This document shows, piece after piece, positions 16,960 through 44,933 of a stretch of DNA of 64,000 nt (position 1 is its first letter; the number at the start of each line of letters is the position of its first letter). The notes beneath the pieces were generated by a model. The model searched no databases and was not told where the DNA came from. It worked only from the letters and a program-made list of their open reading frames with translations. The position numbers and the translations under genes are program-made. The stretch is from contig CBDCVR010000014.1 in the NCBI GenBank assembly GCA_965223155.1, positions 960,001 to 1,024,000 on the forward strand, in the 5' to 3' direction. Source of the DNA: Candidatus Multivoradales bacterium. Lineage in GTDB: Bacteria; Acidobacteriota; Thermoanaerobaculia; Multivoradales; JAHEKO01.

Positions 16960-17087
16960 TCTGACACCCTCGAATCGCAAGTCTCGTGCCGCGGGTGGCG
17001 CAGGCCGGACCGGGGGTGGCTGGGGCGGACAAGAGCCACCAAGAACCTACTTCAGGTAGACGGAGGCCTCATAAACTACTGGTTCTC

Positions 17088-17136
17088 TTGGTGGAGCCGA
17101 TCGGGATCGAACCGACGACCTCTTGAATGCCATTCA
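17088..17136. repeat. Left att site: 49-bp duplicate of the tRNA-Ala 3' part
   Basis: Identical to 44857-44905; similarity extends to 17066/44835 with 3 mismatches. Confidence 0.95.
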
Positions 17137-17299: not shown

Positions 17300-18538
17300 A
17301 TGCGGAAGCGGATCACGAAGCGCTCTGTCGACGCCCTGAAGCCCGGCGCTCGGGACGCCTTTCTCTGGGACACCGACCTCACCGGCTTCGGCTGCAAGGT
17401 CACACCCAAGGGCCGCAAGGTCTACGTACTCCAGTACCGACCACGCGGCCAAGGCTGGAAGACTGCGCCGAAGCGAGTCACCATCGGCAAGCACGGCGAC
17501 CTGACTCCGGAGAAGGCCCGCAAGATCGCCTCCGAGCTCCTCTTCGAGGTGAAGTCGGGCGCCGACCCGGCAGCGGCCTGGAAGCCGGGCGAGGCGCCCA
17601 CCGTGGCGGATCTCGCCGAGCGCTTTATCCACGAGTACCTCCCCAACAAGAAGAGGCCGCCGCGGGACTCGACAGTCTGCTACTACGAGTTGCTCTTTCG
17701 CTGCCACGTCGTGCCCAGCCTCGGAGGCAAACGCGTCGAGGCCGTCGGCCCGGCCGACCTCGAACGGCTACACGCGCAGATGCGCAACACGCCGTACGTC
17801 GCCAACCGGACGCTGTCTCTCCTGCAGAACGCCTTCGACCAGGCGGAGCGTTGGGGGTGGCGTCCGCAAGCATCGAATCCGGCAGTGCACGTCGACAAGT
17901 ACCCCGAGGAGCGCCGTGGTGCCAAGAAGGAAGTCATGCTGACCCCCGAGCAAATGGCCACGCTCCTCGAGGCCATCGATGCTGAAGAGGAAGCGGGTGT
18001 GAACCCGATTGCCTGCGCAGCGATCCGCGTCGCCTTCTGGAGCGGCTGGAGAATCGGCGAAGTCCTGAGCCTGCAATGGGCTCACCTCGACCTCGAGAGT
18101 GGCGCCGCGAAGCTCCTGAACACGAAGACGGCAACCGAAGAACATCGCCACCTTCCCACCGAAGCGGTAGGTCTGCTAAAGGACCTTGCACGATTGGCTG
18201 GTTCGCCCTGGGCCTTCCCCGGTCGCTCGCCAAACAGACACCTGACCACCGTACGGAGGACGTGGATCCGCATTCGTGAGCGAGCCGGCCTAGATGACCT
18301 TGAAGGCCTTGGTGCGCTCCGAATCCACGACTTGCGGCACAACGTCGTTAGCTGGGACGTTTCCCGGGGTGTCCCCCTCGAGATTGCCGGCAAGACTGTC
18401 GGCCACCGCTCGCGGCGTGCTACTGAGGTCTATGCCCACTTTGCGCCAGACGCTCTCAAGCGTGCCGCGGATGCGCGCGCGAAGGCAATGCGCACCGCTC
18501 TCGAGAAGGGCGTGCGAAGCATGGGCGATTCGAACTGA
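17300..18538 (+). CDS. Tyrosine recombinase/integrase with N-terminal arm-DNA-binding domain
   Basis: LWDTDLTGFGCKVTPKGRK N-domain; catalytic GWRIGE, HDLRH, GHRS and VYAH intact. Confidence 0.95.
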   Translation: MRKRITKRSVDALKPGARDAFLWDTDLTGFGCKVTPKGRKVYVLQYRPRGQGWKTAPKRVTIGKHGDLTPEKARKIASELLFEVKSGADPAAAWKPGEAPTVADLAERFIHEYLPNKKRPPRDSTVCYYELLFRCHVVPSLGGKRVEAVGPADLERLHAQMRNTPYVANRTLSLLQNAFDQAERWGWRPQASNPAVHVDKYPEERRGAKKEVMLTPEQMATLLEAIDAEEEAGVNPIACAAIRVAFWSGWRIGEVLSLQWAHLDLESGAAKLLNTKTATEEHRHLPTEAVGLLKDLARLAGSPWAFPGRSPNRHLTTVRRTWIRIRERAGLDDLEGLGALRIHDLRHNVVSWDVSRGVPLEIAGKTVGHRSRRATEVYAHFAPDALKRAADARAKAMRTALEKGVRSMGDSN

Positions 18539-20183: not shown

Positions 20184-20190
20184 TCTAGAC

Positions 20191-22144: not shown

Positions 22145-22315
22145 AACTCCTCCCCCAAGCGCCTCGTAGATCGAAGCGATGAATAGCTCTAAGAGTCGGT
22201 TACCACAAGACTAGCACGCGCTTGAAGAACGGCACAAGCCTCCGAGGCACAGGCCAACTCTCGGTCCGGCGGTGAACGGCTTGTGGCCACGGAGAGGGCA
22301 AGGCTCTGCCTGTAC

Positions 22316-22590: not shown

Positions 22591-22621
22591 CTGGGCTGAC
22601 GCCCCACGAAGGGCAGACTGG

Positions 22622-22831
22622 CTAGGCCTCGATGACCTCGCAACTCTCTTCCCTGCCGCCCACCTCGACCAGCGCTTCGAGGCATTCCCTCGCGAGCGCA
22701 ACCTGCGGTTCACCTATCGGCTCGTACCGGAGCTCCCCATCCTGCTGCACACTTGCCTCGAGCCGCCTCGCTAGCGCGAGGCGCTCGGCGACTGGTAGCT
22801 CCAAGAGCTTCTTGACTTCGTCTTGATCCAT
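22622..22831 (-). CDS. Putative addiction-module antitoxin-like small protein
   Basis: LLELPVAERLALARRLEASV pattern of TIGR02574-type antitoxins; GGAAGG before ATG 22831. Confidence 0.55.
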   Translation of the reverse strand: MDQDEVKKLLELPVAERLALARRLEASVQQDGELRYEPIGEPQVALARECLEALVEVGGREESCEVIEA

Positions 22832-23069
22832 ACCTTCCAGCGTACGCCTGTCCAGCGACTTTGCAAGCAGCCTTGGGTATACTGATTCAAGACCCCCGTA
22901 CACGGTTCGGAAACCGATCCCTACTGCCTTGCCGGCTCGGTCACCCATAACGACCCGGCAAAGCCACCTGTGAATAGGACGTGGGGGCAGGTAGCTTGCG
23001 CGGCAAGCGTGGCGTTGCGTCCTATTCGCCATAGCTGCGGCGCTAGGAGTAGGGGTCGGCTTCGGAACC

Positions 23070-24335: not shown

Positions 24336-24522
24336 CAACCTCTTGCCGCCAGCTCTTGGCCAGCCTCGAACTCAGAGTTGCTCTAGTTGCTCTTGACAGC
24401 AGGGACGGATATGCTGCTGGCAGTTTCCACAAGACAACTCTGGTGCTGCGGCGAGCATGGCCGCGAATCGACCGAGCTTCTTGCGAGCGGCGCCGCCGTC
24501 AACTCGAAGGGAGTACGAGTAC

Positions 24523-26268
24523 ATGCCGAACTACAAGTCGATCTGGAACAAGGTGGTCTCGCAAACCGATCTGCCCGACGTCATAACTAGCGTCTCAGAA
24601 GCCAGTATTAACGACCTGCTCGTCGCTCATCGCAAGTACGACAGCGAGCTCTATCGCAGAGTGGAGGAGTTAAAGGACGAGACTACGGGCAAGGTCTTCT
24701 TTTCTCTTGACTTGATCGTTGGTGGTGACCGCAAGGCACACAACCAAGGTAAGGCCTTGCCGCTGAAGATGCTGCTTCCCATGAACTACACCAAACTGGC
24801 GAAGCAAGCGTCCGCCTACGAAATGGTCTACAGCTACAGGTTCCATCAAGGTAAGCCACCTGAGCCGAATGCCCTGCTCGACGCCCCTAACGTCAACTTC
24901 TATTTCGCCTGGCCGTCATCAACAGGAGGAACTCCATGGATGCACCATGTGCCGGGTGTGAACTTCCGGCTTGAGGCTCACCTGCGGCTGATGGACGAGG
25001 AAGTCGAGGAGGGCAAGCCTAGATCGCTTGAAATCGTTCCAGTACGGCTGAGAATCAGCAAGGCCTCTTCGGTACGCCTGAAGAAGTCAATCAAACACGC
25101 GCTACAGAAGACTACGCCGACTGTCACGAGCGACAAAGTGACTGATCTGTTCCTCGCTCTGATCGGGTACGGCGCTTCGACGATCGGCCCAGGCTTAGCC
25201 GAAGCAATCGAGCTTCCGGCAATCAAGCTCGAACGCTGGGAACTCTACCCAAACTTGTTTGCCATTCAAGACCGTACAGTGACCTTAGGTGCAAGTCTAG
25301 ACGCCACCAAGTCTTCCAAGCAGTTGCGCGACAAGACGGGAAGCTTTCTCGAGAACTATTGGGCAGCGGTTGACGCAGACATCCAAAGTGCTGGAGGCAT
25401 CGAGCCTCTCGTCCTGACTAAGAGCTCGCTCAACAAGGTGCGCGCTTCTGCCAAGACGACAGGAGCGCTGGCAACCAAGCTCGCCTTCCAGTCCGATCAG
25501 GCTATCCTGCGAAACTTCAAGACCGCGAACGCCTATCTCAACGAGGCCAAGGCGCAGAACGCTCGCCTACTATCTTCCCGCTTGGGGCCAGCTACCCGCG
25601 CTGTGACGAGCAAAGCGAAGGGTACCGTCCCTGATGGGATGGCAGCAGCAGTCAATGAGTACCTCCTCGACAAGATCGTCGCCCAGTATGGAAACATTTT
25701 GAAAGAGGGCTACACGAACGAAATCAAGATTCTGGACCTCATTCGCGGCCGGGTCGGGTACCGGCTGTCGGTTGGCGTTCCGGATATTGATATCACCCCG
25801 GCCAAAGGGCTGACGGGCAGCGTTCCGGTTGACGCTTGGGCAGGACTACTCTACCGAGTTCGACAGATAAACCGATGCAAGATCGTCTGGAGCGGAGAGA
25901 AGCGCATAGGGCTTGGAATCAGGGGGACGCCGAAGGTCAGCATCAAGACAAAGGTCAGTAGAGGGCTATCTCTACATGCGGATTTTGACCTTTCGAAGCT
26001 GAAACTCTATACGGGGGCTGGCTTCCCGATCGACGACATCGTTGGCGCCCTCTCGCCCATATTTGTCGGTGGAATCGAGGGAGTGCTTGACCTTCTGGCA
26101 TTGTTCCTATCCTTCGTTGTCGTGCCTGCTGATCTAGCGGCCGGAGAAAAGACCAAGCTCTCTTTGAGCGCCTTCAAGACTTCCCAGTACAGGAGAACTG
26201 GCGGTCCCTCTGACTCAAGAAACAACTATCTGATGCTCACGGCTGCAACTGAAGGGAAGAAAGCCTAG
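24523..26268 (+). CDS. Hypothetical protein, possibly tandem TULIP/BPI-like domains
   Basis: Long ORF with atypical codon use; AAGGGAG upstream of MPNYKSIW; two similar strand-helix starts (TSVSEASINDLL, AAVNEYLLDKIV). Confidence 0.6.
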   Translation: MPNYKSIWNKVVSQTDLPDVITSVSEASINDLLVAHRKYDSELYRRVEELKDETTGKVFFSLDLIVGGDRKAHNQGKALPLKMLLPMNYTKLAKQASAYEMVYSYRFHQGKPPEPNALLDAPNVNFYFAWPSSTGGTPWMHHVPGVNFRLEAHLRLMDEEVEEGKPRSLEIVPVRLRISKASSVRLKKSIKHALQKTTPTVTSDKVTDLFLALIGYGASTIGPGLAEAIELPAIKLERWELYPNLFAIQDRTVTLGASLDATKSSKQLRDKTGSFLENYWAAVDADIQSAGGIEPLVLTKSSLNKVRASAKTTGALATKLAFQSDQAILRNFKTANAYLNEAKAQNARLLSSRLGPATRAVTSKAKGTVPDGMAAAVNEYLLDKIVAQYGNILKEGYTNEIKILDLIRGRVGYRLSVGVPDIDITPAKGLTGSVPVDAWAGLLYRVRQINRCKIVWSGEKRIGLGIRGTPKVSIKTKVSRGLSLHADFDLSKLKLYTGAGFPIDDIVGALSPIFVGGIEGVLDLLALFLSFVVVPADLAAGEKTKLSLSAFKTSQYRRTGGPSDSRNNYLMLTAATEGKKA

Positions 26269-26378
26269 CAACACAGGTTGCGTAGTAGGGGCGTACGTGA
26301 GATTGGCTCGGATCACCCGAGTCAGATTGGGTGGTTGTCCACAGGAGGCGATGCGGCACAGGGAGTAGGCTGAAGTGT

Positions 26379-27320
26379 ATGCGTCCGTCCCGCCGCAGGC
26401 CGCGCTTCGAGAGAGTCCCGATCCGCAACTTCCGGCTCACTGACCGCGACCTCGCGATAATCGAAAACGTCGAGCGGTACCGACTGCTCGATTCGGAACA
26501 GATCGTCGCCCTCTTGGGCGAGGGCAGTCCGCAGCATGTGCGCCGCCGGCTGCAGCTTCTCTTCCATAACCGATACCTCGATCGCCCTCCGGTCCAGATA
26601 GCCGACTTCTATCGGACCCCGGGCACGTTGCCCATGGTCTATGGGTTGGGCAACCGGGGGGCCGATGCGCTCGCGGAGCATCTGCGGCGGAATCGAAGAA
26701 AGGGCGACTGGGCGACCAAGAATCGGTCGATCCGGTCAACCTTCTTTCATCACACGCTGATGGTCTCGTCGATCATTGTGGCGTTCGCGGTCTCCTGCCG
26801 CAGGCGCGAGAACGTCCGGCTGATTCCCTGGGAAGAGATCCTCGAGACAACCTGCCCCGAAGAGGCGAGACGCCTCAAACACCCGCTCACCTGGCGCGTC
26901 AGGGTCCCGGAGGTCGGTTCGCTAGGGGTAACACCTGACCGCGTCTTCGGCCTCGAGTTCGCCGATCGGCCGCAGAGCAGGCGCCGCTCCTACTTCTTCT
27001 TGGAGGCAGACCGCGCCAGCATGCCGGTGATTCGGAAAGACCTTCGCGGCACCTCCATCTTCCGAAAGCTCCTCGCCTATCAGGCAACCGCTTCCCAGAA
27101 GCTCCATTCGGAACGATTCGGAATCAACAACTTCCGCGTTCTGACGGTAACGAAAAGTCCAAAGCAGGAGCGCGTCTCTTCGATGGTCGAGGCGGCGCAG
27201 CAGCTCTCCGGGCCTCAGGGCATCTTCCTTTTCACCGACATCGAGTCGCTCACATCAGGTGACGCACTGACGCACGAGTGGAAGAACGGCCGCGGTGAGT
27301 CGGTTCGACTTCTGGACTGA
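26379..27320 (+). CDS. Replication-relaxation (Replic_Relax) family relaxase
   Basis: LTDRDLAII...RRRLQLL wHTH, MVYGLG Tyr, FFHHTL, PDRVF, FLEADR, RKLLAY. Confidence 0.88.
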   Translation: MRPSRRRPRFERVPIRNFRLTDRDLAIIENVERYRLLDSEQIVALLGEGSPQHVRRRLQLLFHNRYLDRPPVQIADFYRTPGTLPMVYGLGNRGADALAEHLRRNRRKGDWATKNRSIRSTFFHHTLMVSSIIVAFAVSCRRRENVRLIPWEEILETTCPEEARRLKHPLTWRVRVPEVGSLGVTPDRVFGLEFADRPQSRRRSYFFLEADRASMPVIRKDLRGTSIFRKLLAYQATASQKLHSERFGINNFRVLTVTKSPKQERVSSMVEAAQQLSGPQGIFLFTDIESLTSGDALTHEWKNGRGESVRLLD

Positions 27321-31898: not shown

Positions 31899-32771
31899 TT
31901 GCCTCACGCTCCCTCAGACGCCGCCCCTTGCAGACATTCCGCACGTCCACCAGATTGGCTAGTCGAGAAGCTCGTCTCGCTCTTCGAGTCTGAAATACCG
32001 AAGGATGCCGATTTCCTCGCTAGGCACGGCATTTCGGCCACTGAGTACCGAATGGCCTACGATCAGGCCGTCGAGCGAATTCGCGGCCGGATGTCTGCTT
32101 CCGATGCAACAAAACGAGGATTCGTCGAGGCAATCCTGTCCGAAGGTGTTCGCCAGAAAGTCTTCAGATCATGGTCCCTGGAAGATGCCCCACTATCCAA
32201 GGTCTATCGCCTGGAACTAACGTCAGGTGGGACCGTCGGCCTAATCCGAAAAGGTTGCCCAGACGGAAACCACATGAACAGATGGTCTCGGCCTGCCTGG
32301 GCTAGTGAACTTTTCCTTTGGTGGCTCTGCCCAACGTCACAGGTTCGCGACCCGGGCGCAAACATCTGGAAAGGCATTGCTCGCTACAGGTCCCGGCTCC
32401 AACGGTCGCGCAGAGAACAGTTGGACGGCGTCATCTTTCACGATCAGCTTTGTGGCACTCCGCAGAGACCTTGCCCCAAGAAGCGCACCAAGCTGATTCT
32501 GAATGACATCGCTATTCCAGCACCATGCTTGTACGTATTGCCCCAGATTCCCGAGACGGCGGGGCGCCACAACTGGCGAGGAGAAAGGCAACTCGAGTTT
32601 CCCCCTGCGCTTCTTGGGCTCTTCGGCGTCTCCCGAACCGCGTCCGATTACTACACAGGCTTCGTCGGCCTGGAGACAACCAGCACCGGAATCTCCAGAA
32701 CAAGAGTCACAGCTCGGTTCGGCGAGGGACAGATCTCAAGCCACACAACCTCCAGGAGACTTCAGAGATGA
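31899..32771 (+). CDS. Hypothetical protein, possible restriction-endonuclease-like
   Basis: KGCPDGNH, LCGT..RPCPK and PAPCLY Cys motifs; first gene of the operon facing the MTase; the nuclease role is inference. Confidence 0.5.
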   Translation: MPHAPSDAAPCRHSARPPDWLVEKLVSLFESEIPKDADFLARHGISATEYRMAYDQAVERIRGRMSASDATKRGFVEAILSEGVRQKVFRSWSLEDAPLSKVYRLELTSGGTVGLIRKGCPDGNHMNRWSRPAWASELFLWWLCPTSQVRDPGANIWKGIARYRSRLQRSRREQLDGVIFHDQLCGTPQRPCPKKRTKLILNDIAIPAPCLYVLPQIPETAGRHNWRGERQLEFPPALLGLFGVSRTASDYYTGFVGLETTSTGISRTRVTARFGEGQISSHTTSRRLQR

Positions 32772-34081
32772 ATCCACACCTCAACCAGGAGCGAGTCGAG
32801 TATCTTCAGAATCGGCCTCAGGACCAAAGCGAGCGTCTCGCCGCCTGGCCGCGGAACAACAAGAACCTCCCTGTCTGCGAAATTGAGATCGATTGGCTCA
32901 GATTCTCTATCCGAAATCACAGAACGAAGGCCGAGCAGCTAAAGCGAATCAAGGAAACAGGCAATGCAGGGTTGTTCCGGGATAACCCGCTAGGCCCGCT
33001 AGCACAGCGAGAGCAGTATGAGCTATTGAAGAAGCTCCCGCGGTTCCCAAACCTCAAGGAGGACCTGCGAAATCGCGAGCAGCAGGACCGAGCGGTCGTC
33101 ACTGCGGAAGGAGTTGTAATCAACGGCAACCGAAGGCTCGCAGCACTCAGGGCATTGCTCGAAGACGATCACCTTCCAGCCCGCTACATGCACTGCATCA
33201 TTCTTCCGGAAGACGCGACCGAGGACGAGATGCGGCTCCTTGAGACTGAGCTTCAGGTCGCCGAGACTTTCCGCGAAGAGTACTCCTGGATCAATCGTCT
33301 TCTGCTTGTCGACGAACTCTTAGAGGCCAACGATCAGCGGTACAGCCTCGTTGCAACCATCATGCACATGGAAGAACGCGACGTGCGCGAAGATATTCAG
33401 ATACTTCGGCAACTCGACCAGATAGTCGAGATGTCAGATGACACCTACCTCCATGCTGACTTTGAACCACATGAATCCGCGTTCAAGGAGCTGACCAAAC
33501 ACATCAGCAACAAACCTGAGGACGAGGCGAAGGCGGTCAGGACTGCCTATTTCCTCGGAACTCTCTCAAAATGCAACTACCGCGACCTTCGTCACCTCCG
33601 GTCGCCGAGCGCCCTAGAGTACATTGAGGCGGAAATCAAAGCGATGCCTGAGCTAGAGGAAGTCGCTGATACCGTCTCGAGGCGTACACAAGAGTCGGAG
33701 CGAAGCGCTGTCGATGATCTACTCGATGACGCTCTTGGAACAGAGCAATCCTCCACCAAAGCTGAGGCCCTGCTGAGCGAGTTGGCGCGAGCCGACGTCT
33801 CGTCGTCAATTGAGCTCCCAGACGGCGAGGACATCGCGGTAACCGCCGTGCTCAGTCATCTCAACATCGCCGTCACGCAAGCAGCTCAGGAAGCCAAGAG
33901 CGACAGCGAGGAGCAGGAGAAGGCCGCGGCGCCAGCCAAGCGAATCGCCGAGGCGAGTGCGAAGATCCGGCGAGCTCTCTTGATTCTCCCCGAGGCAAGG
34001 GCCCTGCCCGATTGGAACGAGGATGAGTTTCGCAAATGCGTGAAGGACCTTCAGAACGCTACGAAGAAGCTAGTTGAGTGA
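32768..34081 (+). CDS. ParB/Srx N-terminal domain protein
   Basis: RNHRT and VVTAEGVVINGNRRLAALR motifs; ATGA overlap with the upstream gene. Confidence 0.8.
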   Translation: MNPHLNQERVEYLQNRPQDQSERLAAWPRNNKNLPVCEIEIDWLRFSIRNHRTKAEQLKRIKETGNAGLFRDNPLGPLAQREQYELLKKLPRFPNLKEDLRNREQQDRAVVTAEGVVINGNRRLAALRALLEDDHLPARYMHCIILPEDATEDEMRLLETELQVAETFREEYSWINRLLLVDELLEANDQRYSLVATIMHMEERDVREDIQILRQLDQIVEMSDDTYLHADFEPHESAFKELTKHISNKPEDEAKAVRTAYFLGTLSKCNYRDLRHLRSPSALEYIEAEIKAMPELEEVADTVSRRTQESERSAVDDLLDDALGTEQSSTKAEALLSELARADVSSSIELPDGEDIAVTAVLSHLNIAVTQAAQEAKSDSEEQEKAAAPAKRIAEASAKIRRALLILPEARALPDWNEDEFRKCVKDLQNATKKLVE

Positions 34082-35985
34082 TACGTCTTGAAATAGAGCC
34101 ACTCCACCCATCCATTGTTCGATTGGACGTCGGGAACTCGGCCGGTGAACGCGGCGCATGGGCAAGACTTCAAGAGGTCTATCAAAGAGGGGTAGCAGGC
34201 GGGTCGCGTTCGCATCTCCTTGTTCGTCTGGATGTTGTCTTGAGCGAACTTGCGGCGCTTCGGGAAGTTCGCCGTGGGTTCGGCGCTCCGATAGAAATCG
34301 GGGGCCGATTGCGCGAGCGGATCGCTCGACTAGCCACAGACAGGAAGGGACGGGAAGCTGCAATAAGGGCTTCTAGCTTCGATGAAGAAGGCATCGAATC
34401 GGAGCTTGACGCAGCAGGATTCAAAAGAAGGCTTAGACCCTTCCAGGTCAAGAATCTCGCGAAGCTCCTAGCGCTTCCTCACGGGGCTGATTTCTCGGTC
34501 CCTGGAGCCGGGAAGACAACGGTCGCGCTTGCTCAGTTCGCTCTTCGCTGCGAGCAAGGGGTTGCGGAGAAGGCGCTAGTGATAGCGCCGATCTCAGCTT
34601 TCTCAAGCTGGCAGGAAGAAACGGAGGCTTGCTTCAGGCACCCTCCTGAAGTAGCCATCCATCAGATTGGGGAACCGATACCCGGAACAGCGACGATCAC
34701 ACTGTCCAACTATCACCGCCTTGCCGCGGACTTCGAATCCCTTCATGCCTGGACAAACGAGGATCGCACGCTGGTGTTCCTGGATGAGGCCCACAGAATG
34801 AAGCGAGGCCGCGCGGGCGTTCACGGTTCCGCAGCGCTGGATCTCGCCTTCTCCGCCGTCAGGCGGGACATCCTCACCGGAACCCCGTCCCCTCAGGGAG
34901 CATTAGACCTCGTTGCGCTGATGGATTTTCTCTATCCCGGGCAAGCGCGCCTGATCCTGCCCCAAGAGGCCTTTGTCCCTGCAATGTCGCTCGAGCCCGC
35001 TGTGCTTCAGGAATCGAGCCGCCGCCTTCAAACTCACTTCGTCCGAACCACCAAAAAGGACCTCGACCTCCCGCCAACAGAGTTTGCCGTTGTCGCTCAG
35101 CCGATGGGTCCAATCCAGCAGAAGATCTATCGAGCAATCTGCGGCACCTACCGAGGCCGACTGTCGCTCGAAAAGCCTGATCGCCGCTTTCTGCGCCGGC
35201 TTGGCAGAATCGTTATGTATCTGCTCGAAGCGGCGACCAATCCGCTTCTCTTGCCAGCCGGTTCTGACCCGGAGGACCTCTCGCCGTTCGCGCACCCTCC
35301 CCTCCAACTTGAAGACGACAGCTCCTTACTGCAACTCCTCGCAGAGTATGGTCGCTATGAGACGCCGTGGAAATACAGGTACGTATACGACAGGGTGGCG
35401 GAGGCTTCGCAAGCTGGCGAGAAGGCTGTGGTCTGGACGAACTTCGTACGGAACATAAGGCTGCTAGCGCAAGAACTCGCCGAGTTCCAACCTGCGGTCA
35501 TACATGGAGGCGTTCCCACCCGACACAATGCCGCTTCAGGCCTAGAGTTGACTCGTGAGGATGAGCTTGATCGGTTTCGCCATGATCCGGATTGTAAGGT
35601 GCTCCTCGCGAACCCTGCCGCCGCCGGAGAAGGAATCAGTCTCCACCATTGGTGTCACCATGCGATCTACCTGGATCGAACATTCAACGCCGCGCACTAT
35701 CTACAAAGCCAAGATCGCATCCACCGGCTTGGTCTTGAGGCAGGAGTAATAACCCGATTCACTCTCTTGGTATCACAGGAGTCGATTGACGAAACAGTCG
35801 ATCAGCGACTTCGCATAAAGGTGGAAGCGCTCTCGGTCCTCATGAGCGACCCCGATCTTGTTCAGGTTTCCCTGCCAGATGAAGAGGATCCCGATCTTGG
35901 GGGCAACCCTGCCTTTGACGAGGACGAAGCTGCTCTCCATAAACACCTCGAAGCTGTTGGCAATGGGTCAGCTCCTGCCAAGTGA
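34078..35985 (+). CDS. SNF2-family (SF2) helicase/ATPase
   Basis: LRPFQ, SVPGAGKT, LDEAH, LTGTP, GEGISL, QSQDRIHRLG; GTGA overlap. Confidence 0.92.
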   Translation: MIRLEIEPLHPSIVRLDVGNSAGERGAWARLQEVYQRGVAGGSRSHLLVRLDVVLSELAALREVRRGFGAPIEIGGRLRERIARLATDRKGREAAIRASSFDEEGIESELDAAGFKRRLRPFQVKNLAKLLALPHGADFSVPGAGKTTVALAQFALRCEQGVAEKALVIAPISAFSSWQEETEACFRHPPEVAIHQIGEPIPGTATITLSNYHRLAADFESLHAWTNEDRTLVFLDEAHRMKRGRAGVHGSAALDLAFSAVRRDILTGTPSPQGALDLVALMDFLYPGQARLILPQEAFVPAMSLEPAVLQESSRRLQTHFVRTTKKDLDLPPTEFAVVAQPMGPIQQKIYRAICGTYRGRLSLEKPDRRFLRRLGRIVMYLLEAATNPLLLPAGSDPEDLSPFAHPPLQLEDDSSLLQLLAEYGRYETPWKYRYVYDRVAEASQAGEKAVVWTNFVRNIRLLAQELAEFQPAVIHGGVPTRHNAASGLELTREDELDRFRHDPDCKVLLANPAAAGEGISLHHWCHHAIYLDRTFNAAHYLQSQDRIHRLGLEAGVITRFTLLVSQESIDETVDQRLRIKVEALSVLMSDPDLVQVSLPDEEDPDLGGNPAFDEDEAALHKHLEAVGNGSAPAK

Positions 35986-36889
35986 AGGCATTTGCCACGG
36001 CTGCTATGTCCTCGGATACGCAGCGACGCTGAATCCCAGGCCTGACTTTGATGAGTGGGTCAGTCGGGCCCGAAGGCAGCTTGCCGGGGAAAGCGGAACT
36101 CGGGATATCGAACGACTAGCCCGTACACTTCTCAATATCGGACTCGTGTCTGCAAAGCCTGACGGGACGGTCTATTTCCGGGCTCGGTTCCCTTCCTGCC
36201 GGGATGGGTCGGACCGCTTGACTCGGCTTCGAATCGCCATGGCGGTCCTGCAAGCCTCAAGGCCGAGATGGCTCCCAAAGTCGGGCGTCATTGAAGACAT
36301 CGTTCCTGCCCTAGTTCCCGAACGCGATCTCCTCGAGCTGGAGTGGATGGGCAGTGATCTCGAACCAATTCTGGCATCACTCGTTTCACCCCCTTCAGAC
36401 GATGCGATCCTCAAAACCTTGGGAGACTTCGGAGAAGCGGCCGTCATGGCGGCAGAGACTCGCAGGGGCAGAGATGTACTTCAGGTCAGCGAGATCAGCG
36501 ACCACTATGGGTACGATTTGGAATCAGCCGACAACAAGCTCGGGGACATTCTGCGGCTCGAGGTTAAGGCTGCGGTGTCAACCAGACCGGATGTCTTCTA
36601 TCTTTCACGCAACCAGTTCAGAGTCGCACGAGTCTTCGACAGTTCGTGGCGTTTGGTTCAGGTTGTGTTTGACGCATCTGACTTCTGGACTAAGCAAGTA
36701 ATTGACCGCAAGAGCATTTACCTTCTCCGATATATCGATGCCGCCACTCTCCACAGCTTAGCCGTCCAAGACCTACCCCAATGTAAGTGGCAAGGTAAGC
36801 TGCGTTTCAAGCTGGGAGCCAAACACTGGGTGGATTATCCCCACAGGCCTCCAACGAATTGGTCAATTCAGGCCCCGCTGCCTCGCTAA
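35963..36889 (+). CDS. DUF3883 (NO VEIN C-terminal) PD-(D/E)xK nuclease domain protein
   Basis: GDFGEAAV...VSEISDHYGYDLES...LEVK...FYLSRNQ; overlaps the helicase end. Confidence 0.8.
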   Translation: MGQLLPSEGICHGCYVLGYAATLNPRPDFDEWVSRARRQLAGESGTRDIERLARTLLNIGLVSAKPDGTVYFRARFPSCRDGSDRLTRLRIAMAVLQASRPRWLPKSGVIEDIVPALVPERDLLELEWMGSDLEPILASLVSPPSDDAILKTLGDFGEAAVMAAETRRGRDVLQVSEISDHYGYDLESADNKLGDILRLEVKAAVSTRPDVFYLSRNQFRVARVFDSSWRLVQVVFDASDFWTKQVIDRKSIYLLRYIDAATLHSLAVQDLPQCKWQGKLRFKLGAKHWVDYPHRPPTNWSIQAPLPR

Positions 36890-36912
36890 AGGCTCGCCTT
36901 AAAACCGTACCC

Positions 36913-37338
36913 TCAGGCTCCTGCGGGGGACCCCGATCGTCTCCTAGCGAGTTCCGTCGAGAGACGCCGAACGCCACGCTCAAGTTGGCACTCCCAAATT
37001 GTCCAGACGGACCAGCCCATTTGCCGGAGTTCTTTGCGAACTCGTTGGTCCCGCTTCCGGTTGCGCTCTATCTTCGCCTCCCAGTAGTCCCGTCTACTCT
37101 CAGGCATCCGAGAGCGCCTACAGCCGTGCCAGTGCCAGAAGCACCCATGAACAAAGACCGCTAGCTTAAAGCGCGGGAAGATCAGATCGGGCGTTCCTGG
37201 CAAGTGCCTTCCATGCAGCCGATAGCGGAAACCTGCAGCGTGAACCGCTTTCCTTACATAGAGCTCAGGGCCTGTGTCCGTTGATCGGACGCGGGCCATA
37301 ATCCTGCTACGTGCTGCTTCGCTGACGGTGTCCGTCAG
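36913..37338 (-). CDS. vsr: Very-short-patch repair endonuclease
   Basis: TDTVSEAARSRIMARVRSTDTGPEL, LPGTPD, FVHGCFWH, IWEC; CTG start after AGGAGG. Confidence 0.95.
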   Translation of the reverse strand: MTDTVSEAARSRIMARVRSTDTGPELYVRKAVHAAGFRYRLHGRHLPGTPDLIFPRFKLAVFVHGCFWHWHGCRRSRMPESRRDYWEAKIERNRKRDQRVRKELRQMGWSVWTIWECQLERGVRRLSTELARRRSGSPAGA

Positions 37339-37359
37339 TAGGCCTCCTATCCAAAAGCT

Positions 37360-38010
37360 TTAGGTGTTGCTCCCCTGCCCGGTCTCGTCGAACCTTCGCT
37401 TGGCCAGATGTTCCAAACGTCTCGCTTGGGTGAGCAGCGTCATGCGAAGGCCGGGCCCGACGGAGCGTTCGCTTATCACCTGTGCGAGCTTTGCAATAGT
37501 CGCAGCTCGCCTCGCCACTCGTAGGTCTGGATGTCTTCGCCGGTCGTACACGTGCTGCGGAACAATGCGGCGACGAAAAGACGTCGGCAGTTTTGCTAGA
37601 GGAGCCTTTGCCACTTCGACCTCATTTAGCACTGCGCCAAACTCTGAAGCCTCGATAGCCTCCTGAAAGACGGTGTACTCGGCTGAGTCAAGTAGTTGTT
37701 TACGCTCCCCCTTGTCTAGGTCTGTCGCGTGCCACAGTGGCCAGATCTCGACCTCGGCAACTTCGAAAACATCTAGTACGTTCATCGCCACAGCATCTGT
37801 CCGCTGGTTAGTAAGATGCCGAGCGATCCGCGAGCTCACGCGCTCGTAAGTTTGCCCAACGTAGATCGGTTCGCCGTCGTAGTCATAGAAGGCGTAGACA
37901 CCACACTTGCATGTGCCAATCCTCTTGCCATTCTCGTCCGTCGTGTCGAGGAGCTTTTTGAGCTCGCGCCGGATTGCTCGAACTTCCTCCGGCGGCTCTA
38001 GGCGGGGCAT
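37360..38010 (-). CDS. GIY-YIG nuclease
   Basis: GVYAF...IYVGQT...RIARH...E...LN. Confidence 0.85.
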   Translation of the reverse strand: MPRLEPPEEVRAIRRELKKLLDTTDENGKRIGTCKCGVYAFYDYDGEPIYVGQTYERVSSRIARHLTNQRTDAVAMNVLDVFEVAEVEIWPLWHATDLDKGERKQLLDSAEYTVFQEAIEASEFGAVLNEVEVAKAPLAKLPTSFRRRIVPQHVYDRRRHPDLRVARRAATIAKLAQVISERSVGPGLRMTLLTQARRLEHLAKRRFDETGQGSNT

Positions 38011-38033
38011 TGTCTAGGCAATCAAGCTGCGAC

Positions 38034-39323
38034 TCATGTCCTAGGAGCTGAGTTTTCCCACTTCGTCGCCGACGCTTCTGCTGAGCGACGGTAGGCCTGG
38101 AGAGTCCGGCAGGGAGTCTCTTTGTCTCTGGTCTCATTCGCGAGCATCGCAACGCACTCCTCGGCGACCGGTGTGAGCAAGTGGTCCGCTAGCCATGAGA
38201 CCACTGGCACCACAACGGCATCCCCCATTGCATGGTAGGCAGCGTTGTAGGCCTCTGGAAGAACGAGATCTGGAGCCCCCATCAATCTCGCAGCTTCCCG
38301 AGGTGAAAGAAGACGCGCCCTGACTTTTCGCTTGTCGATCACTAAGACCGTCTGCCGGCTTGAGCCACCCCGCGGCGTGCGGAGGCATCCGGCCACGCCA
38401 TCAAACCTGACCTCTGCCTTCTGCGACCCATTCCGCGTTCTCTTATACAAAAGGCCAATCTGTCGCGTACCCGATTTCAAGGCACTTTCCACCTTTGCCA
38501 CATTCAACGGAGTCATCAAGCTCAAGAGACGTTGAACCTGAGAATCATCGAGCCAACTCACTCCGCGGGGAGGGTCCTCCAGCAAGTCTCCAAAGGTCTG
38601 GACCTTTTCCTCGGTGGGCGGCAGCTTCCACCAACGCCAGCGCTGCGCAAGCGCAGCCGGCAAGGACTCGAAGGCAGCAATCACGGGCTTGGTTACCCAG
38701 GGGCCGTCCTTAGCTCCGAACTCCGTGAACGCCGAGCAGTCCAGCTTGGAATCGACCGCGACCACGAAGACTCGTGGTCGGGACTGCGGCACAAAACGCT
38801 TAGCGTCAATAACTAGGGCGCCGAACTGCAGGTCAAGAGCCGCCAGCGCTTCACACAGCCCAACGAAGCCGTCTCCGTACAAGAGACCGGTCACGTTTTC
38901 GAGAACAACCACTGGTGGACGCCGGCCACGGTCGAAAAGGTCTCTCATGATGCGCCAGAATGGCCAAAAAGTTCCACTCCGCTCGGCCGACATTCCTCGT
39001 CTCCAACCCGCCAGCGAAAGATCCTGGCACGGGAATGATGACCAGGCCAAGACGGCGTCTTCGGGAAGCGAGTCTGCCCTCACATTCGCGATGCTGTCCA
39101 GAACGAAGTGGTCCTCCCCAAAATTGGCCGCATAGACGGCTCTCTTCTTGGGGTCATTATCGTTCGCCCACACGCAACGCCAAGACTTACCCAGGCCCTT
39201 TCGCGCGAGCCCTGCGCCCGCAAAGAATTCGTAGAAGGCGAATGGCTGGCTTGCTGTCATTTCGCTTGCAGTGGGAGGTTTCGCGGGCCTTTTGTAGCCT
39301 TGTGTCTTCTTCAATCGTACCAC
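38034..39323 (-). CDS. dcm: DNA (cytosine-5) methyltransferase
   Basis: FFAGAG, FPCQDLS, LENV, PQSRPRVF, RLLSPREAARLMG, GDAV; start may be ATG 39260. Confidence 0.95.
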   Translation of the reverse strand: MVRLKKTQGYKRPAKPPTASEMTASQPFAFYEFFAGAGLARKGLGKSWRCVWANDNDPKKRAVYAANFGEDHFVLDSIANVRADSLPEDAVLAWSSFPCQDLSLAGWRRGMSAERSGTFWPFWRIMRDLFDRGRRPPVVVLENVTGLLYGDGFVGLCEALAALDLQFGALVIDAKRFVPQSRPRVFVVAVDSKLDCSAFTEFGAKDGPWVTKPVIAAFESLPAALAQRWRWWKLPPTEEKVQTFGDLLEDPPRGVSWLDDSQVQRLLSLMTPLNVAKVESALKSGTRQIGLLYKRTRNGSQKAEVRFDGVAGCLRTPRGGSSRQTVLVIDKRKVRARLLSPREAARLMGAPDLVLPEAYNAAYHAMGDAVVVPVVSWLADHLLTPVAEECVAMLANETRDKETPCRTLQAYRRSAEASATKWENSAPRT

Positions 39324-40119: not shown

Positions 40120-43100
40120 GTGCTCGTCGACGCGCGCATCGTCGAGCTGACCCAAAGCTTCTACGCCTGGGAGCTTCGCGGTCGTGGCTGGGCCCGCTAC
40201 CCCCAACCTGTGGTTCTGGAGCCGGCCTTTCGGCCGTTCCTGAGTCACGAGCTGCCGAGACCGCCCGCGTACGACGACGCTCGACGCCCTACCCTGCTGT
40301 CCTCCCTTGCCGGCCTCGTCAAAGGCGAACGGCCCGAGGAGACGCAATCTCTGCGAGAGATCGAGGAGCCGGATCCGATCCTAGATCCGCGTTCGCCCGA
40401 GAAGGTCGAGCTCGCAGAGTTCGTGGTCGCCCTCCCGCAGGACTCCCGAGTCAGCAGCGGCGCTGTCGTTTCCTGGCTGCGGTCGCTATCGACGATCTCG
40501 GGACCGGCTTCGTTTGAGCTCCTCGGTGGAGGCGGCCGGGTGGAAGTGCGGCTGGCCATTGGCAATGCGGACGTCTCTCAGGCTCTCGGGCAGCTACGGG
40601 CCGTCCTTCCGGAGGCGGTCGTATTGGGGGCGCGAGACTCGCTCATCGAGCGATGGGTCCAGAACGACGGTGGCGTGTTCTCGGCGGTCGAGTTCGGTCT
40701 CGCCAACGAGTTCATGGTGCCGCTGGCTCGGTTCGGACCTAGCGAGGAACCACTGTTGCCGCTTGTGGCTGCCCTGGCCGACGTCGGAAACGATGAGCTG
40801 GGGCTCGTGCAAGTTCTCTTCGAGGAAACGCGAGAGCCCTGGGAAGACAGCCTGCTCCGGTCGGTTGTGACGCCGAGCGGCAAGCCGTTCTTCGCCGATG
40901 CGCCCGAGATCACTGCGGCGGCCAAAGAGAAGGTCTCAACTCCGCTGTATGCGGTGTGTTTGCGCGTCGCTGGCGTCGGTCGTGACGGAGACAGCGCCAC
41001 AGCGGTTGTGAGCCGCTTGGCCGCCGGCCTCTCGCACTTCGGCAATCCGCGAGCCAACGAGCTAATGCCGCTGCCGACCGATGCGTTCGAGATCCTCGAG
41101 TCCGATCTCCTACGACGCACGACGCACCGATCGGGGATGCTGCTTTCTACCGAGGAGCTCGCCTCGCTCGTGCACTTCCCCGGCGCCGGGGTCCGCGTGC
41201 CCGAGCTCTGGCGAGCGAGCGAGAAAACCAAGGCGGCACCCCCTGAGGTCCGCGGTTCCGGCTGCTTCATCGGTAGAAACGAGCACCACCGGGAAGAGAA
41301 CGAGGTCCGGCTCTCCGTCGACGCGAAAACCAAGCACGTTCATGTCGTCGGAAGCTCGGGCACCGGCAAGTCGACCCTGCTGGTGCGGATGATCCTGGAG
41401 GACATCGAGCAAGGCCACGGCGTGGGAGTGCTCGACCCCCACGGCGACCTCATCGCCGAAGTGGCCTCGCGGCTGCCCCAGGAACGGTTCACAGATGTCG
41501 TCTTCTTCGACCCGAGCGAAGACCAGACGGCGATCGGCTGGAACATTCTCGGGGCCCAGTCCGAGACCGAGAAGGATCTACTCGCCTCCGATCTCGTAGG
41601 GGTCTTCCGGCGTCTCTCGACCTCCTGGGGCGACCAGATGACGGCCGTCCTGGCGAACGCCATCCTGGTGTTCCTGGAGTCGAGCTGTGGCGGAACACTC
41701 CTCGAGCTTCGCAAGTTCCTGGTCGACGAGGCGTTTCGCAGGGAGGTGCTCGCGACCGTCGATGACGAGTATGTGGGCTCGTTCTGGGAGACGGAATTTC
41801 CGCTTCTGATCGGACGGAAACCGCAGGCGCCGATCCTGACCCGGCTAGATATGTTCCTGCGGTCGAAGCTCATCCGCCGGATCGTGACCGTGCGGGAGCC
41901 GAAACTGGACTTCCGCGAGGTCACTGACCGCGGATTGATCTTCCTGGGCAAGCTCGCGACCGGCGCGATCGGCGAAGACAACGCGGCGCTTCTGGGGTCA
42001 CTCCTGGTTTCGAAGTTCCACCAGGTGACGATTGCCCGTGAAGCTCAGGCGGTCGAGGATCGGCGTCCGTTCTTTCTCTACATCGACGAGTTCCATCACG
42101 TGGCCACGCCGTCGATGGCCTCCCTCTTCTCAGGTGCGCGCAAATACCGTCTCGGTTTGACCGTAGCGCACCAGGACCTCTTCCAGCTCCACAAGAACGT
42201 CCCTGAGGTCGAGCGTTCGCTCCTGGCGAACGCCTACACGCGGGTCTGCTTCCGGGCAGGCGAGGCGGACGCGCGGGATCTCGCCAAGGGATTCAGCTTC
42301 TTCGAGCCCGAGGATCTTATGGGTCTCGGGCTGGGAGAAGCTGTTTGTCGAGTCGGTGGCCGGGGTGCCGATTTCAACCTCAGGACTGAGAAGCTGCCGG
42401 GTGTCGAGCGGGATGAGGCACGAGCTCGGCTCACGGCACTGCGCCAGATGACCGCGGAGAGGTGGCGAGGTGGAGCTGATGAAACGGTGTCGCCTCCAAG
42501 TCGTGAGGAAGCGCCCAAACCGCCGCCGAAGCCCGCTACCTCCCAGCCGGCGGCGAAACCGCCCGCCTCGGCTGCCAGCGAGCCGACTTCTGCCGCTGAA
42601 CCGGAGACTTCCGAGGCTCCGCAGCCACAGTTGGACAAAGAGGCGCTTGACTACCTCGAGCTCATCGCGAACGAGCCGTTCCTCTCAGTCCGCGAGCGGA
42701 ACGACCAGCTCGGCCTTTCCGCTTGGAAAGGAAACCAGATCAAGAAGACGATCCTGGATGCGAATCTCGTCCGTGAAGTGCCGGTCAATCCCGGGGGGCG
42801 GGGGCAACGATTCAAGCTCTTCGAGTTCACGGCCGCCGGCCGGGATGTTCTCGCCGAGTATGGGATCGAGTCGCCTACCGGCTATGGCAGGGGGGGCGTC
42901 GCCCATCAGTGGTGGGTGAACACCATCGCCGAGTGGCTTGGGGAGCAGGGCCTCTCCCCCGTCGTCGAGGACGACTCCTCGGGTGCCAGGGTCGATCTCG
43001 CCTTTTCGGTCAGCCGCAAGAAGGTGGCCGTCGAGGTCGAGATGGCCGAAGGCCACGCCTTAGAGAACATCCGGAAGGACCTGGAAGCCGGCTACCACTT

Positions 43101-43545
43101 CGTGGTGAGTCTCCTGGATGACTCCGCATCCTTCAAGCGGATCCAGGAAGGTCTGGAATCTGAGACGGGAGACCTTCCTTCGAACGTTCGGGTGGGGGCA
43201 CTTCAAGACTACGCGGAGCTCCTTACCCCGCCCCTTATCCCCCACCCTCCTCCCTCTTTACGACGACCGAAACAAGACAAAGAACCAAGACGCCGCTCTC
43301 GACGGCGTCGGCGAGCCGCAGCGCCTTCGGCCGGCTCGAGTCCGCTCATGGAGCCCGGCGCTTTGACGACGCCGATGGCGGCCGACTACGTCGGTCTCAG
43401 TCCGGCGACGCTCGAAACGATGCGAGTCAGGGGTGGCGGGCCGGTGTTCGTGAAGCTGGGCGCCAGGGTCGTCTACCAGCGGGAGGATCTGGACAAGTGG
43501 TTGGAAGAGCGGAAACGAAAGTCAACCAGTGATCCGGGCCATTAA
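40120..43545 (+). CDS. Large VirD4/HerA-like ATPase with C-terminal wHTH, PD-(D/E)xK-like and HTH_17 excisionase-like domains
   Basis: KHVHVVGSSGTGKST, LDPHGDL, LYIDEFH, GARKY; Pro/Ala linker; HQWW...RVDLAF...VAVEVE; LTTPMAADYVGLSPATL...GPVFVKLGARVVYQREDLDKWL. Confidence 0.88.
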   Translation: MLVDARIVELTQSFYAWELRGRGWARYPQPVVLEPAFRPFLSHELPRPPAYDDARRPTLLSSLAGLVKGERPEETQSLREIEEPDPILDPRSPEKVELAEFVVALPQDSRVSSGAVVSWLRSLSTISGPASFELLGGGGRVEVRLAIGNADVSQALGQLRAVLPEAVVLGARDSLIERWVQNDGGVFSAVEFGLANEFMVPLARFGPSEEPLLPLVAALADVGNDELGLVQVLFEETREPWEDSLLRSVVTPSGKPFFADAPEITAAAKEKVSTPLYAVCLRVAGVGRDGDSATAVVSRLAAGLSHFGNPRANELMPLPTDAFEILESDLLRRTTHRSGMLLSTEELASLVHFPGAGVRVPELWRASEKTKAAPPEVRGSGCFIGRNEHHREENEVRLSVDAKTKHVHVVGSSGTGKSTLLVRMILEDIEQGHGVGVLDPHGDLIAEVASRLPQERFTDVVFFDPSEDQTAIGWNILGAQSETEKDLLASDLVGVFRRLSTSWGDQMTAVLANAILVFLESSCGGTLLELRKFLVDEAFRREVLATVDDEYVGSFWETEFPLLIGRKPQAPILTRLDMFLRSKLIRRIVTVREPKLDFREVTDRGLIFLGKLATGAIGEDNAALLGSLLVSKFHQVTIAREAQAVEDRRPFFLYIDEFHHVATPSMASLFSGARKYRLGLTVAHQDLFQLHKNVPEVERSLLANAYTRVCFRAGEADARDLAKGFSFFEPEDLMGLGLGEAVCRVGGRGADFNLRTEKLPGVERDEARARLTALRQMTAERWRGGADETVSPPSREEAPKPPPKPATSQPAAKPPASAASEPTSAAEPETSEAPQPQLDKEALDYLELIANEPFLSVRERNDQLGLSAWKGNQIKKTILDANLVREVPVNPGGRGQRFKLFEFTAAGRDVLAEYGIESPTGYGRGGVAHQWWVNTIAEWLGEQGLSPVVEDDSSGARVDLAFSVSRKKVAVEVEMAEGHALENIRKDLEAGYHFVVSLLDDSASFKRIQEGLESETGDLPSNVRVGALQDYAELLTPPLIPHPPPSLRRPKQDKEPRRRSRRRRRAAAPSAGSSPLMEPGALTTPMAADYVGLSPATLETMRVRGGGPVFVKLGARVVYQREDLDKWLEERKRKSTSDPGH

Positions 43546-43583: not shown

Positions 43584-44786
43584 ATGTCGCTAAGTGAGCT
43601 TTGGAGCAACTCGCCCGAGCAGTTCGAAGGCAAACGCCTGAGCCAGATCATTGCCTTTGCAGGCACGGGCAAGCTCAGCGACAAGTCGCCCGAAGCCAAC
43701 GAATTTCGAGAGTTCCTCTCCCACATACCCTCCAAGTTGTTGGCCTCATTTGCAGAGGAGTGCCTGCAGGGTGGCTTCAAGATGAGCGGTCTGGCACTTC
43801 AGGACATCGTCAACCAGGTCGGAAGGCGCTTGGGCTTCAACGTCGAGGACGGCCGTTATCGGGGCGTCAAAGGCCAGATCGGTTTCGATGGCATCTGGAG
43901 AACCGAGGACGGTCATGCAGTTGTGATCGAGGTCAAGACCACCGATGCTTACCGTATGGACTTGGGTGTCCCGGCAGGCTACCGGCAAGCCCTGATCGAG
44001 GCCGGCTCCATCAAGGAGGCCAGTTCTTCCATTCTCTTTGTTGTGGGCCGCGAGGACACTGGAGATTTGGAGGCTCAGATCCGAGGATCAAAACACGCCT
44101 GGGATATTCGAGTCATCAGCGTGGACGCCCTGCTAAAACTGATGAAGCTCCGAGAAGAGCTTGAGGACCCCCTTATCGTCCAGAAGATCGGCACGATCCT
44201 GACTCCACAGGAGTACACACGAGTAGACGGCATTATCGACGTGGTCTTTCTTACTGCAGAGGACGTTAAGGAAGAAACCGATCCCGAGGATGCCGAGGAC
44301 TCGGCAGTGACCAAGACAAGGTCTCCAGTCGCATTCAACGCCGAGTGCGTTGAACGCGTACAGAAACATCTCGGTCGAAACCTCATCAAGCAGTCACGGG
44401 TTAGCTGGCGATCTCCAGACGGACGTCTGGCCGTCTTGTGTACTGTCTCTCGGGCATACGAGCAACCGGGAATAGTCGGGTATTGGTACGCTTATCACCC
44501 CCACCAGAGAGAGTTCCTCGGCAACGCAGAGAAGGCATTCGCAGCATTCGGGTGCGGCTCGAAGGACATCGTTCTTCTTATCCCAAAAGACGCTCTCGAC
44601 GGTTGGCTAGACGGTCTCCACACGACTACTCGCGATGATGGTAGGAGCTATTGGCACGTGCGGATTCAGAACGAAGGAGGCAAGTTCCGCCTCCTCCGCA
44701 GGGCAGGCTTTGAGTCGGTTGACCTGACTGCGTACTTACTTCCGCCCACGGTCGAAGCCGAGGCGAATGCCGGCCGAAAAGACTGA
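43584..44786 (+). CDS. Mrr-like PD-(D/E)xK restriction endonuclease domain protein
   Basis: LQDIVNQVGRRLGF...FDGIW...VIEVKT; second C-terminal domain. Confidence 0.7.
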   Translation: MSLSELWSNSPEQFEGKRLSQIIAFAGTGKLSDKSPEANEFREFLSHIPSKLLASFAEECLQGGFKMSGLALQDIVNQVGRRLGFNVEDGRYRGVKGQIGFDGIWRTEDGHAVVIEVKTTDAYRMDLGVPAGYRQALIEAGSIKEASSSILFVVGREDTGDLEAQIRGSKHAWDIRVISVDALLKLMKLREELEDPLIVQKIGTILTPQEYTRVDGIIDVVFLTAEDVKEETDPEDAEDSAVTKTRSPVAFNAECVERVQKHLGRNLIKQSRVSWRSPDGRLAVLCTVSRAYEQPGIVGYWYAYHPHQREFLGNAEKAFAAFGCGSKDIVLLIPKDALDGWLDGLHTTTRDDGRSYWHVRIQNEGGKFRLLRRAGFESVDLTAYLLPPTVEAEANAGRKD

Positions 44787-44807: not shown

Positions 44808-44857
44808 CAGAACCAGAACGAGGCACCTCGCGGCGCCTCGTAAACTACTGATTCTAT

Positions 44858-44933
<76 letters not shown>

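Follow-up and report, generated by a model that had tools for sequence, protein, structure and literature searches.

The closest described relative of the locus reported here is the lactococcal abortive infection (Abi) system AbiR. According to a 2026 review, AbiR consists of a sigma70-like protein (AbiRa), a ParB-like protein (AbiRb) and a protein combining a nuclease with a SNF2 motor (AbiRc); it requires the LlaKR2I methylase, is toxic without it and interferes with phage DNA replication by a mechanism called unclear (PMC13064643). Other sources note AbiR as associated with restriction–modification (RM) (PMC3632139), report it as part of DefenseFinder (10.1101/2024.02.29.582594) and describe AbiRb/AbiRc-like operons in SAR11 that have no AbiRa, miss the terminal AbiRc domain and were left unassigned (PMC13712998). 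We analysed a 64,000-nucleotide stretch of a Candidatus Multivoradales bacterium genome (contig CBDCVR010000014.1, positions 960,001 to 1,024,000; hereafter the window), which contains a seven-gene block at positions 31,899–39,323 (Table 1). In this block, next to a 5-methylcytosine (m5C) methylase, genes for a ParB-fold protein, a SNF2 translocase and a DUF3883 nuclease follow a gene whose product is related to type II restriction endonucleases (REases) but is predicted to lack catalysis. With moderate confidence, we interpret the block, which is likely to act against phages, as a restriction system related to AbiR, gated by methylation and carried by an integrative element, in which the dead enzyme would bind unmethylated sites, the ParB and SNF2 proteins would assemble there and DUF3883 would cut.

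The seven open reading frames (ORFs) gave stop-free translations. The sequence showed an ATGA overlap between the REase homologue and ParB genes (32768–32771) and a GTGA overlap between the ParB and SNF2 genes (34078–34081). The SNF2 gene, ending at 35985, overlapped the DUF3883 gene, with its ATG at 35963, by 23 bp. The stops of DUF3883 (36889) and Vsr (36913) were convergent, with 23 bp between them. The Vsr gene probably starts at the CTG at 37338, which has AGGAGG ahead of it. An earlier note, made from the sequence alone, had read the same junctions as four overlapping genes meeting a three-gene convergent operon, and its SNF2, DUF3883, Vsr, GIY-YIG and m5C methylase assignments were borne out by Pfam. 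A PADLOC scan returned individual matches to REase_II, DruM2 and MTase_II. The note had read the first gene as nuclease-like; the comparisons below predict that its product is catalytically dead.

The first protein matched the PADLOC model REase_II PDLC03501 (1e-28), to which a stand-alone plasmid homologue matched over its full length (9e-160); it was 27–34% identical to the stand-alone REase homologues. These stand-alone, methylase-paired homologues carry D-Y ... (E/D)-x-K, with Asp in 12/12 and Glu or Asp in 11/12; a thirteenth row (L060), grouped with them by distance, was a broken copy of the linked type with V and I. In the alignment, the window protein had V102 and I116 where its stand-alone relatives have D and E/D, and retained K118. 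V or I at both acidic PD-(D/E)xK positions, with the lysine kept, was found in all 59 ParB-linked copies, the window included. An AlphaFold model of the first protein (predicted local distance difference test, pLDDT, 89.8) placed the two positions on adjacent strands (101–107 and 112–118) after a helix (69–85), and a strand pair following a helix is the usual PD-(D/E)xK layout. Structural matches of the model were weak: BsmI reached a Z score of 5.5 (root-mean-square deviation 3.7, 133 aligned), and NucC, BspD6I and PaqCI matched with Z of 5.5 or less, level with unrelated folds. The first protein and ParB were equally conserved (mean identity 54% each in 32 complete loci), which argues that the first gene is under selection and not decaying. 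D122 and E137 were conserved in linked and stand-alone copies alike, and a set of aromatic residues was invariant in the linked copies and absent from the stand-alone ones. From the substituted residues, the first gene is predicted to encode a catalytically dead type II REase homologue. A complex prediction of ParB with the first protein scored 0.00, which says nothing for or against an interaction.

The distribution of the block was determined with a ParB-anchored scan of one genome per species, which gave 68 loci; plasmid and viral searches added six, for a total of 74. Fifty-nine of them formed a close clade (ParB at least 36% identical over the best-matching segment) spanning Proteobacteria, Actinomycetota, Acidobacteriota and Verrucomicrobiota. 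Homologues of the first gene and ParB were present in all 59 close loci, SNF2 in 58 and DUF3883 in 56; in the three loci without DUF3883, the gene would fall at contig ends. The order REase-like, ParB, SNF2, DUF3883 was constant across phyla. A full m5C methylase lay within 10 kb in 54/59 loci and Vsr was present in 48/59, the methylase being placed upstream or downstream on either strand in four arrangements (23, 5, 15 and 11 loci). GIY-YIG occurred in 26 loci, DUF4928 in 15 and a second, active-type REase in three, and the flanks examined showed none of these in 16. GIY-YIG and DUF4928 were nearly exclusive, both being present in only one locus (Fisher p 7e-4, a value that is overstated since kin loci are not independent). 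The cassette genes co-occurred far above chance. The locus divides into two modules, one being the fixed operon of four genes and the other a loose, rearrangeable methylase/Vsr unit with exchangeable nucleases. The earlier note had proposed a methylation-based defence system and, as a check, whether its ParB, SNF2 and DUF3883 genes co-occur with this methylase clade; they do travel together, but as two modules and not as one unit. GIY-YIG, which it had included in the set, is present here as an optional, replaceable accessory that alternates with DUF4928.

The ParB, SNF2 and DUF3883 genes also recurred behind other first genes. A second clade consisted of an N4/N6 methylase, a 153-amino-acid BglII-family protein, ParB, SNF2 and DUF3883. 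When its BglII/BstYI-like first proteins were aligned to BstYI, at what we take to be the catalytic positions of that enzyme, neither the Asp nor the Glu was present in any of the 12. The examined flanks of this clade contained no GIY-YIG, DUF4928 or second REase. A third clade, in Firmicutes prophages and elements, had a BanI/DpnII-like first gene, an m5C methylase and often Vsr. Its first proteins, which are close kin, had Ser at the Asp position in 15/15. In a profile-free search of representatives, Asp occupied that position in 51 of 76 rows, the rows with Asp being mostly those of distant relatives.

In an independent SNF2-anchored scan, 112 of 159 loci were analysed (L223 and L226–L271 were excluded as weak matches, and some contigs repeat earlier loci). 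ParB was directly upstream in 89 of the 93 loci with room for it, and DUF3883 was downstream in 92/99. In 87 loci the contig left room for a gene before ParB; this gene was of the BglII-like kind in 37, of the BanI-like kind in 17 and of the window type in four, it was a methylase in three and some other gene in 18, and in eight there was none. All 37 BglII-like proteins had Asp or Glu at neither position, and the four window-type proteins had V/I. Two of the other first genes encoded a bare NgoFVII B3-like DNA-binding domain (1e-32 and 8e-31; L127 133–564 and L171 390–830, both near contig starts). The methylase type tracked the first gene, m5C occurring with window-type and BanI-like proteins and N4/N6 with BglII-like ones. 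Two loci (L117 2060–3376 and L137 3915–5039) had an unclassified first-gene family of 375–439 amino acids without a Pfam match, the C-terminus of which looked REase-like by eye and seemingly poor in acidic catalytic residues. Mesorhizobium plasmids showed yet another layout (L084 4546–12802), in which a SNF2-like helicase gene lies between two ParB-like genes and DGQHR, radical SAM and ATPase genes come after them.

The ParB assignment, which the earlier note had made, was weak by hidden Markov model (0.006), with no PADLOC or NCBIfam match above cutoff, and a Protein Data Bank sequence search with the ParB profile gave no match; the assignment was backed by an AlphaFold model (pLDDT 89.8), whose top Foldseek matches were ParB, Noc and KorB, with E values between roughly 2e-4 and 1e-3. 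The GNRR sequence (GxRR box) was present in all 59 close loci, as part of a ParB N-terminal fold. ParB-fold proteins bind CTP, ATP or GTP, with a preference that is not predictable from sequence (10.1101/2025.10.10.680097). The SNF2 protein matched the Pfam families SNF2-rel_dom (1e-14) and Helicase_C, with Walker A conserved in 58/58 and DE[AS]H in 57/58 close loci. DUF3883, called an REase domain in PMC3710099, had E156, D183, E198 and K200 invariant in 56/56 rows (numbered on the 306-amino-acid translation from 35969), and the Atlas neighbours of the window protein were all NOV_C. At position 216 the window protein has Gln, and 55/56 rows have Glu.

The top PADLOC matches of the m5C methylase were DruM2 PDLC00028 (3e-133) and MTase_II PDLC03243 (5e-101), and its PC and ENV motifs were intact. 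It belonged to the clade of methylases that are paired with active stand-alone REases, and a motif alignment showed a recognition-region motif common to both. The GIY-YIG protein had no PADLOC REase match; it alternates with the DUF4928 REase and is a candidate for the ordinary restriction partner of the methylase. The PDLC03501 REase and PDLC03243 methylase are a putative XorII-like pair. The target expected from that name, CGATCG, was outside the ten most depleted 6-mers of the close cassettes and the stand-alone loci. PMC4853030 gives no more than the name XorII. As a separate observation, the plasmids of nine loci with stand-alone active REase pairs (L075–L083) were depleted in GGGCCC (2 seen, 17.5 expected) and CTCGAG (10 seen, 35.4 expected), which may point to the sequence that this methylase clade recognizes; the window block contains three GGGCCC and five CTCGAG.

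In the mechanism we propose, the marking of host sites falls to the m5C methylase and the repair of the T:G mismatches that follow from it to Vsr, as established for these families. The first protein, having lost its metal-binding residues, would be retained as a reader of unmethylated sites, standing in for a parS site or a specificity subunit. It would license the ParB-fold nucleoside triphosphate (NTP)-binding protein and the SNF2 double-stranded DNA translocase to assemble on unmethylated DNA, and these would deliver or activate the DUF3883 nuclease, which might cut away from the site or degrade DNA widely. The first-line nuclease would be GIY-YIG, DUF4928 or an active REase copy, any of which could replace the others. 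Recognition, motor and cleavage would thus reside in separate proteins, as in type I and III systems, with the recognition part borrowed from type II enzymes. Several observations point to this mechanism. The acidic residues have been lost in three REase families, and the first protein is as conserved as ParB. The methylase type follows the first gene, and the recognition-region motif is common with methylases of active pairs. No GIY-YIG, DUF4928 or second REase was seen in the examined flanks of 16/59 close loci and of the BglII clade, and the DUF3883 site is invariant; a bare DNA-binding domain takes the first position in two loci. The dependence of AbiR on its methylase, without which it is toxic, fits as well (PMC13064643).

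Other observations weigh against this mechanism. The catalytic residues of the window REase family are assigned only from motif and secondary structure; the fold matches are weak, and Foldseek with the first-protein model returned nothing at E 0.001. D122 and E137 might serve an altered site. The residues right after the lysine differ (NNTN in linked, xHSS in stand-alone copies), so specificity may have shifted. Five of the 59 close loci had no full methylase within 10 kb: it was elsewhere on the same plasmid in one, a homologue was elsewhere in the genome in three, and one gave no match with the query used. A Streptomyces plasmid locus has ParB, SNF2 and DUF3883 without the first gene and without this methylase. 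Spearman correlations of the methylase with the core genes were 0.43–0.54, compared with 0.61–0.80 among the core genes themselves. Several of the 16 loci without another nuclease were short contigs, and the plasmid of one encodes an active REase outside the locus. In the SNF2-anchored set, the first gene was of another kind or absent in 26/87 loci. A palindrome-avoidance analysis of the cassettes gave no clearly avoided target motif.

Part of this evidence bears on alternatives. If the methylase and GIY-YIG (or DUF4928) were a working RM pair, the dead REase could be a guard or decoy whose engagement triggers cell killing by ParB, SNF2 and DUF3883 as a backup; it would lure the anti-restriction proteins of phages or sense that methylation has been lost, in abortive infection. 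We regard this as rather unlikely, albeit with several points in its favour: another nuclease occurs in 43/59 close loci, three of them with an active-type copy of the same REase, the linked first proteins gained invariant aromatic residues absent from the stand-alone copies, and AbiR is described as an Abi system (PMC13064643). Inactive REases have also been proposed as sensors or decoys elsewhere (PMC12839542, PMC10853773), including BREX-related systems (PMC12839542). However, the examined flanks in the BglII clade and in the 16 close loci held no active REase to guard, and a bare B3-like DNA-binding domain occupies the first position twice. The cassette could also be an addiction or maintenance module with little effect on phages, becoming toxic once methylation fades and so stabilizing the island or plasmid or excluding rival elements. 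Its presence on an integrative element, plasmids and prophages, its rarity in the class of the host (0/300 other genomes) and the toxicity of AbiR without its methylase (PMC13064643) would suit such a role. The described relative AbiR, on the other hand, interferes with phage DNA replication (same source), and addiction and defence are not mutually exclusive; we judge this reading improbable.

Least probable, in our estimation, is that the first gene encodes a type II REase that is still active, its catalytic site having been rearranged; it and the methylase would be an ordinary RM pair, and ParB-SNF2-DUF3883 an independent AbiRbc-like passenger. The REase_II match, the conservation of K118, D122 and E137, and Firmicutes ParB and SNF2 pairs that immediately follow type III RM genes or lie close to type I ones are compatible with it. 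Yet the same acidic residues have been lost in three families, one of them judged against the solved BstYI sequence, and the first gene is translationally coupled to ParB and not to the methylase, which occurs in four different arrangements. Going beyond the methylation-gated mechanism preferred here, we tentatively entertain, at somewhat less than an even chance, that a ParB-type NTP-dependent clamp with SNF2 is the portable execution module of a distinct restriction class. It would be re-targeted again and again by capturing type II RM pairs and disabling their endonuclease, and the dead enzyme would be a methylation-sensitive, protein-defined parS loader for DUF3883. The cases of capture would be the window-type, BglII-like and BanI-like ones and possibly the bare NgoFVII B3 domain.

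The block lies in a 27.8-kb island, the boundaries of which are two copies of a 71-bp sequence from the 3' region of tRNA-Ala (17066–17136 and 44835–44905). The block had a GC content of 57.5%, compared with 59.5% for the island and 66.5% for the genome; the lower-GC block of the earlier note is real relative to the genome, but the low GC belongs to the whole island. Besides the block, the island carries an integrase-like ORF, a Replic_Relax protein, two coupling-protein-like ATPases, RadC and a primase-like gene. The ParB protein was absent from 300 other genomes sampled in the class of the host, which suggests that the block is a rare, mobile acquisition. Two TrwB/TraD-like ATPases and the Replic_Relax protein (23070–24335, 26331–27320, 40120–43545) make up the transfer and replication kit of the island; one of the ATPases has 1141 amino acids and a C-terminal excisionase-like HTH_17. 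A cluster of genes without known family (18753–26268) holds a small GTPase-like ORF (20191–21027), a membrane/coiled-coil ORF (21080–22144) and a 603-amino-acid ORF without matches (24457–26268). Adjoining the tRNA, a 400-amino-acid ORF (43584–44786, plus strand) had no Pfam, PADLOC or NCBIfam match and a visible D...EVK nuclease-like motif; the island may have in it one more nuclease for defence.

Table 1. Genes of the block and landmarks of the island that carries it, in window coordinates.
Feature	Position	Strand	Remarks
Type II REase homologue, predicted catalytically dead, proposed site-recognition subunit	31899..32771	+	290 amino acids
ParB-fold protein, AbiRb-like	32768..34081	+	437 amino acids; GNRR box, C-terminal half helical
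SNF2-family ATPase/translocase	34078..35985	+	635 amino acids; AbiRc-like motor without fused PLD nuclease
DUF3883/NOV_C PD-(D/E)xK nuclease, active site intact, proposed effector	35963..36889	+	Pfam NOV_C 5e-8
Vsr very-short-patch repair nickase	36913..37338	-	Pfam Vsr 3e-25, TIGR00632; CTG start
GIY-YIG nuclease, optional accessory	37360..38010	-	Pfam GIY-YIG 2e-5
m5C DNA methyltransferase	38034..39323	-	PF00145 (C5 DNA methylase 1e-37); start GTG 39323 or ATG 39260
Left attachment repeat of island, copy of tRNA-Ala 3' region	17066..17136	.	71 bp, 95.8% identity to 44835-44905
Integrase-like ORF of island	17300..18538	+	ORF list; tyrosine-recombinase motifs judged by eye
tRNA-Ala(GGC), integration site and right island end	44858..44933	-	ARAGORN; repeat

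The family can be understood as a version related to AbiR that assigns every component a role open to testing and is probably triggered by a defined DNA site. If the proposed mechanism is true, ParB-type clamps are used in restriction, and a repeated route leads from simple type II systems to motor-driven ones via the loss of endonuclease catalysis; the portable-module interpretation, if true, would also explain how AbiR works. Our literature searches turned up no account of disabled type II enzymes being captured repeatedly. These loci also carry a warning for annotation, as profile scans label the first genes active type II enzymes and give the ParB gene no PADLOC or NCBIfam match.

Among known systems, DISARM, Zorya (ZorD), BREX (BrxHII), Dpd (DpdE) and the Gao RL system share a SNF2 helicase domain with the block and, in some cases, a methylase. 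All five gave only partial helicase matches far below cutoff, and their other core genes were not in the block; for DISARM, no DUF1998 (DrmB) or PLD (DrmC) gene was present and DrmA and DrmD scored far under cutoff. Druantia type II resembles the block in that DruM2 was the top PADLOC match of the methylase, but DruE, DruF and DruG were unmatched among the ten proteins scanned. The earlier note was right to place the block outside DISARM and BREX, as there was no family-level match to core models of DISARM, BREX, Zorya or Druantia. Type I and III RM systems separate recognition, ATP-driven translocation and cleavage away from the site, and the same logic, with these tasks in separate proteins, is proposed here; the block differs from them in having no HsdS/HsdM/HsdR or Mod/Res, a free-standing type II methylase and a ParB-fold protein. 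With the type II pair of PDLC03501 REase and PDLC03243 m5C methylase it has in common a homologous REase, the methylase clade with its recognition-region motif, and Vsr. The window REase differs from that of the pair in being without the catalytic D and E and in being coupled to ParB-SNF2-DUF3883 and not to the methylase.

The likeness to AbiR lies in adjacent ParB-fold and SNF2 genes, SNF2 directly behind ParB, and a linked DNA methylase. The comparison is indirect, being based on Firmicutes AbiR-like loci and the published description and not on AbiR sequences. The ParB profile matched the ParB proteins of Firmicutes loci L085–L088 (E 2e-16 to 3e-21), and the window SNF2 was homologous to the Firmicutes AbiR-like SNF2s (E 1e-42 to 4e-33; one retained host SNF2, 2e-14). 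A quick SNF2 tree, with one true outgroup and long branches, was a weak test of shared ancestry. Pieces of AbiR-like systems were found as sigma70-like, ParB and SNF2 genes in L087 and L107 and as ParB and PLD-SNF2 genes in L109 and L111, where dcm and a Sau3AI-family REase are neighbours; no plasmid locus among those examined had all three AbiR genes together. Separately, AbiRbc-like ParB and SNF2 pairs without fused PLD (L087 4513–10764, L086 1–7503, L108 4002–12016) were seen either immediately following type III RM genes or with a type I HsdR on one side and McrBC on the other, and the module may also dock on type I and III systems.

Our literature searches, which did not cover supplements or DefenseFinder, where a listing is possible, found no paper with a disabled REase ahead of ParB-SNF2-DUF3883. 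The ParB and SNF2 core does have a described relative in lactococcal AbiR and is not wholly undescribed, so the word 'undescribed' in the earlier note holds for the variant and not for the core. AbiRc has an N-terminal fused nuclease, and the 857-amino-acid SNF2 protein of L088 carries PLD, whereas the 635-amino-acid window SNF2 has no PLD match and the nuclease is a separate DUF3883 gene. The sigma70-like AbiRa contrasts with a 290-amino-acid dead type II REase homologue in the window. What appears to be new is that a disabled REase takes the place of AbiRa and that the nuclease, fused in AbiR, is a DUF3883 protein of its own. By its gene set, the window system is outside AbiR, two defining features of which it does not have; it probably works like AbiR.

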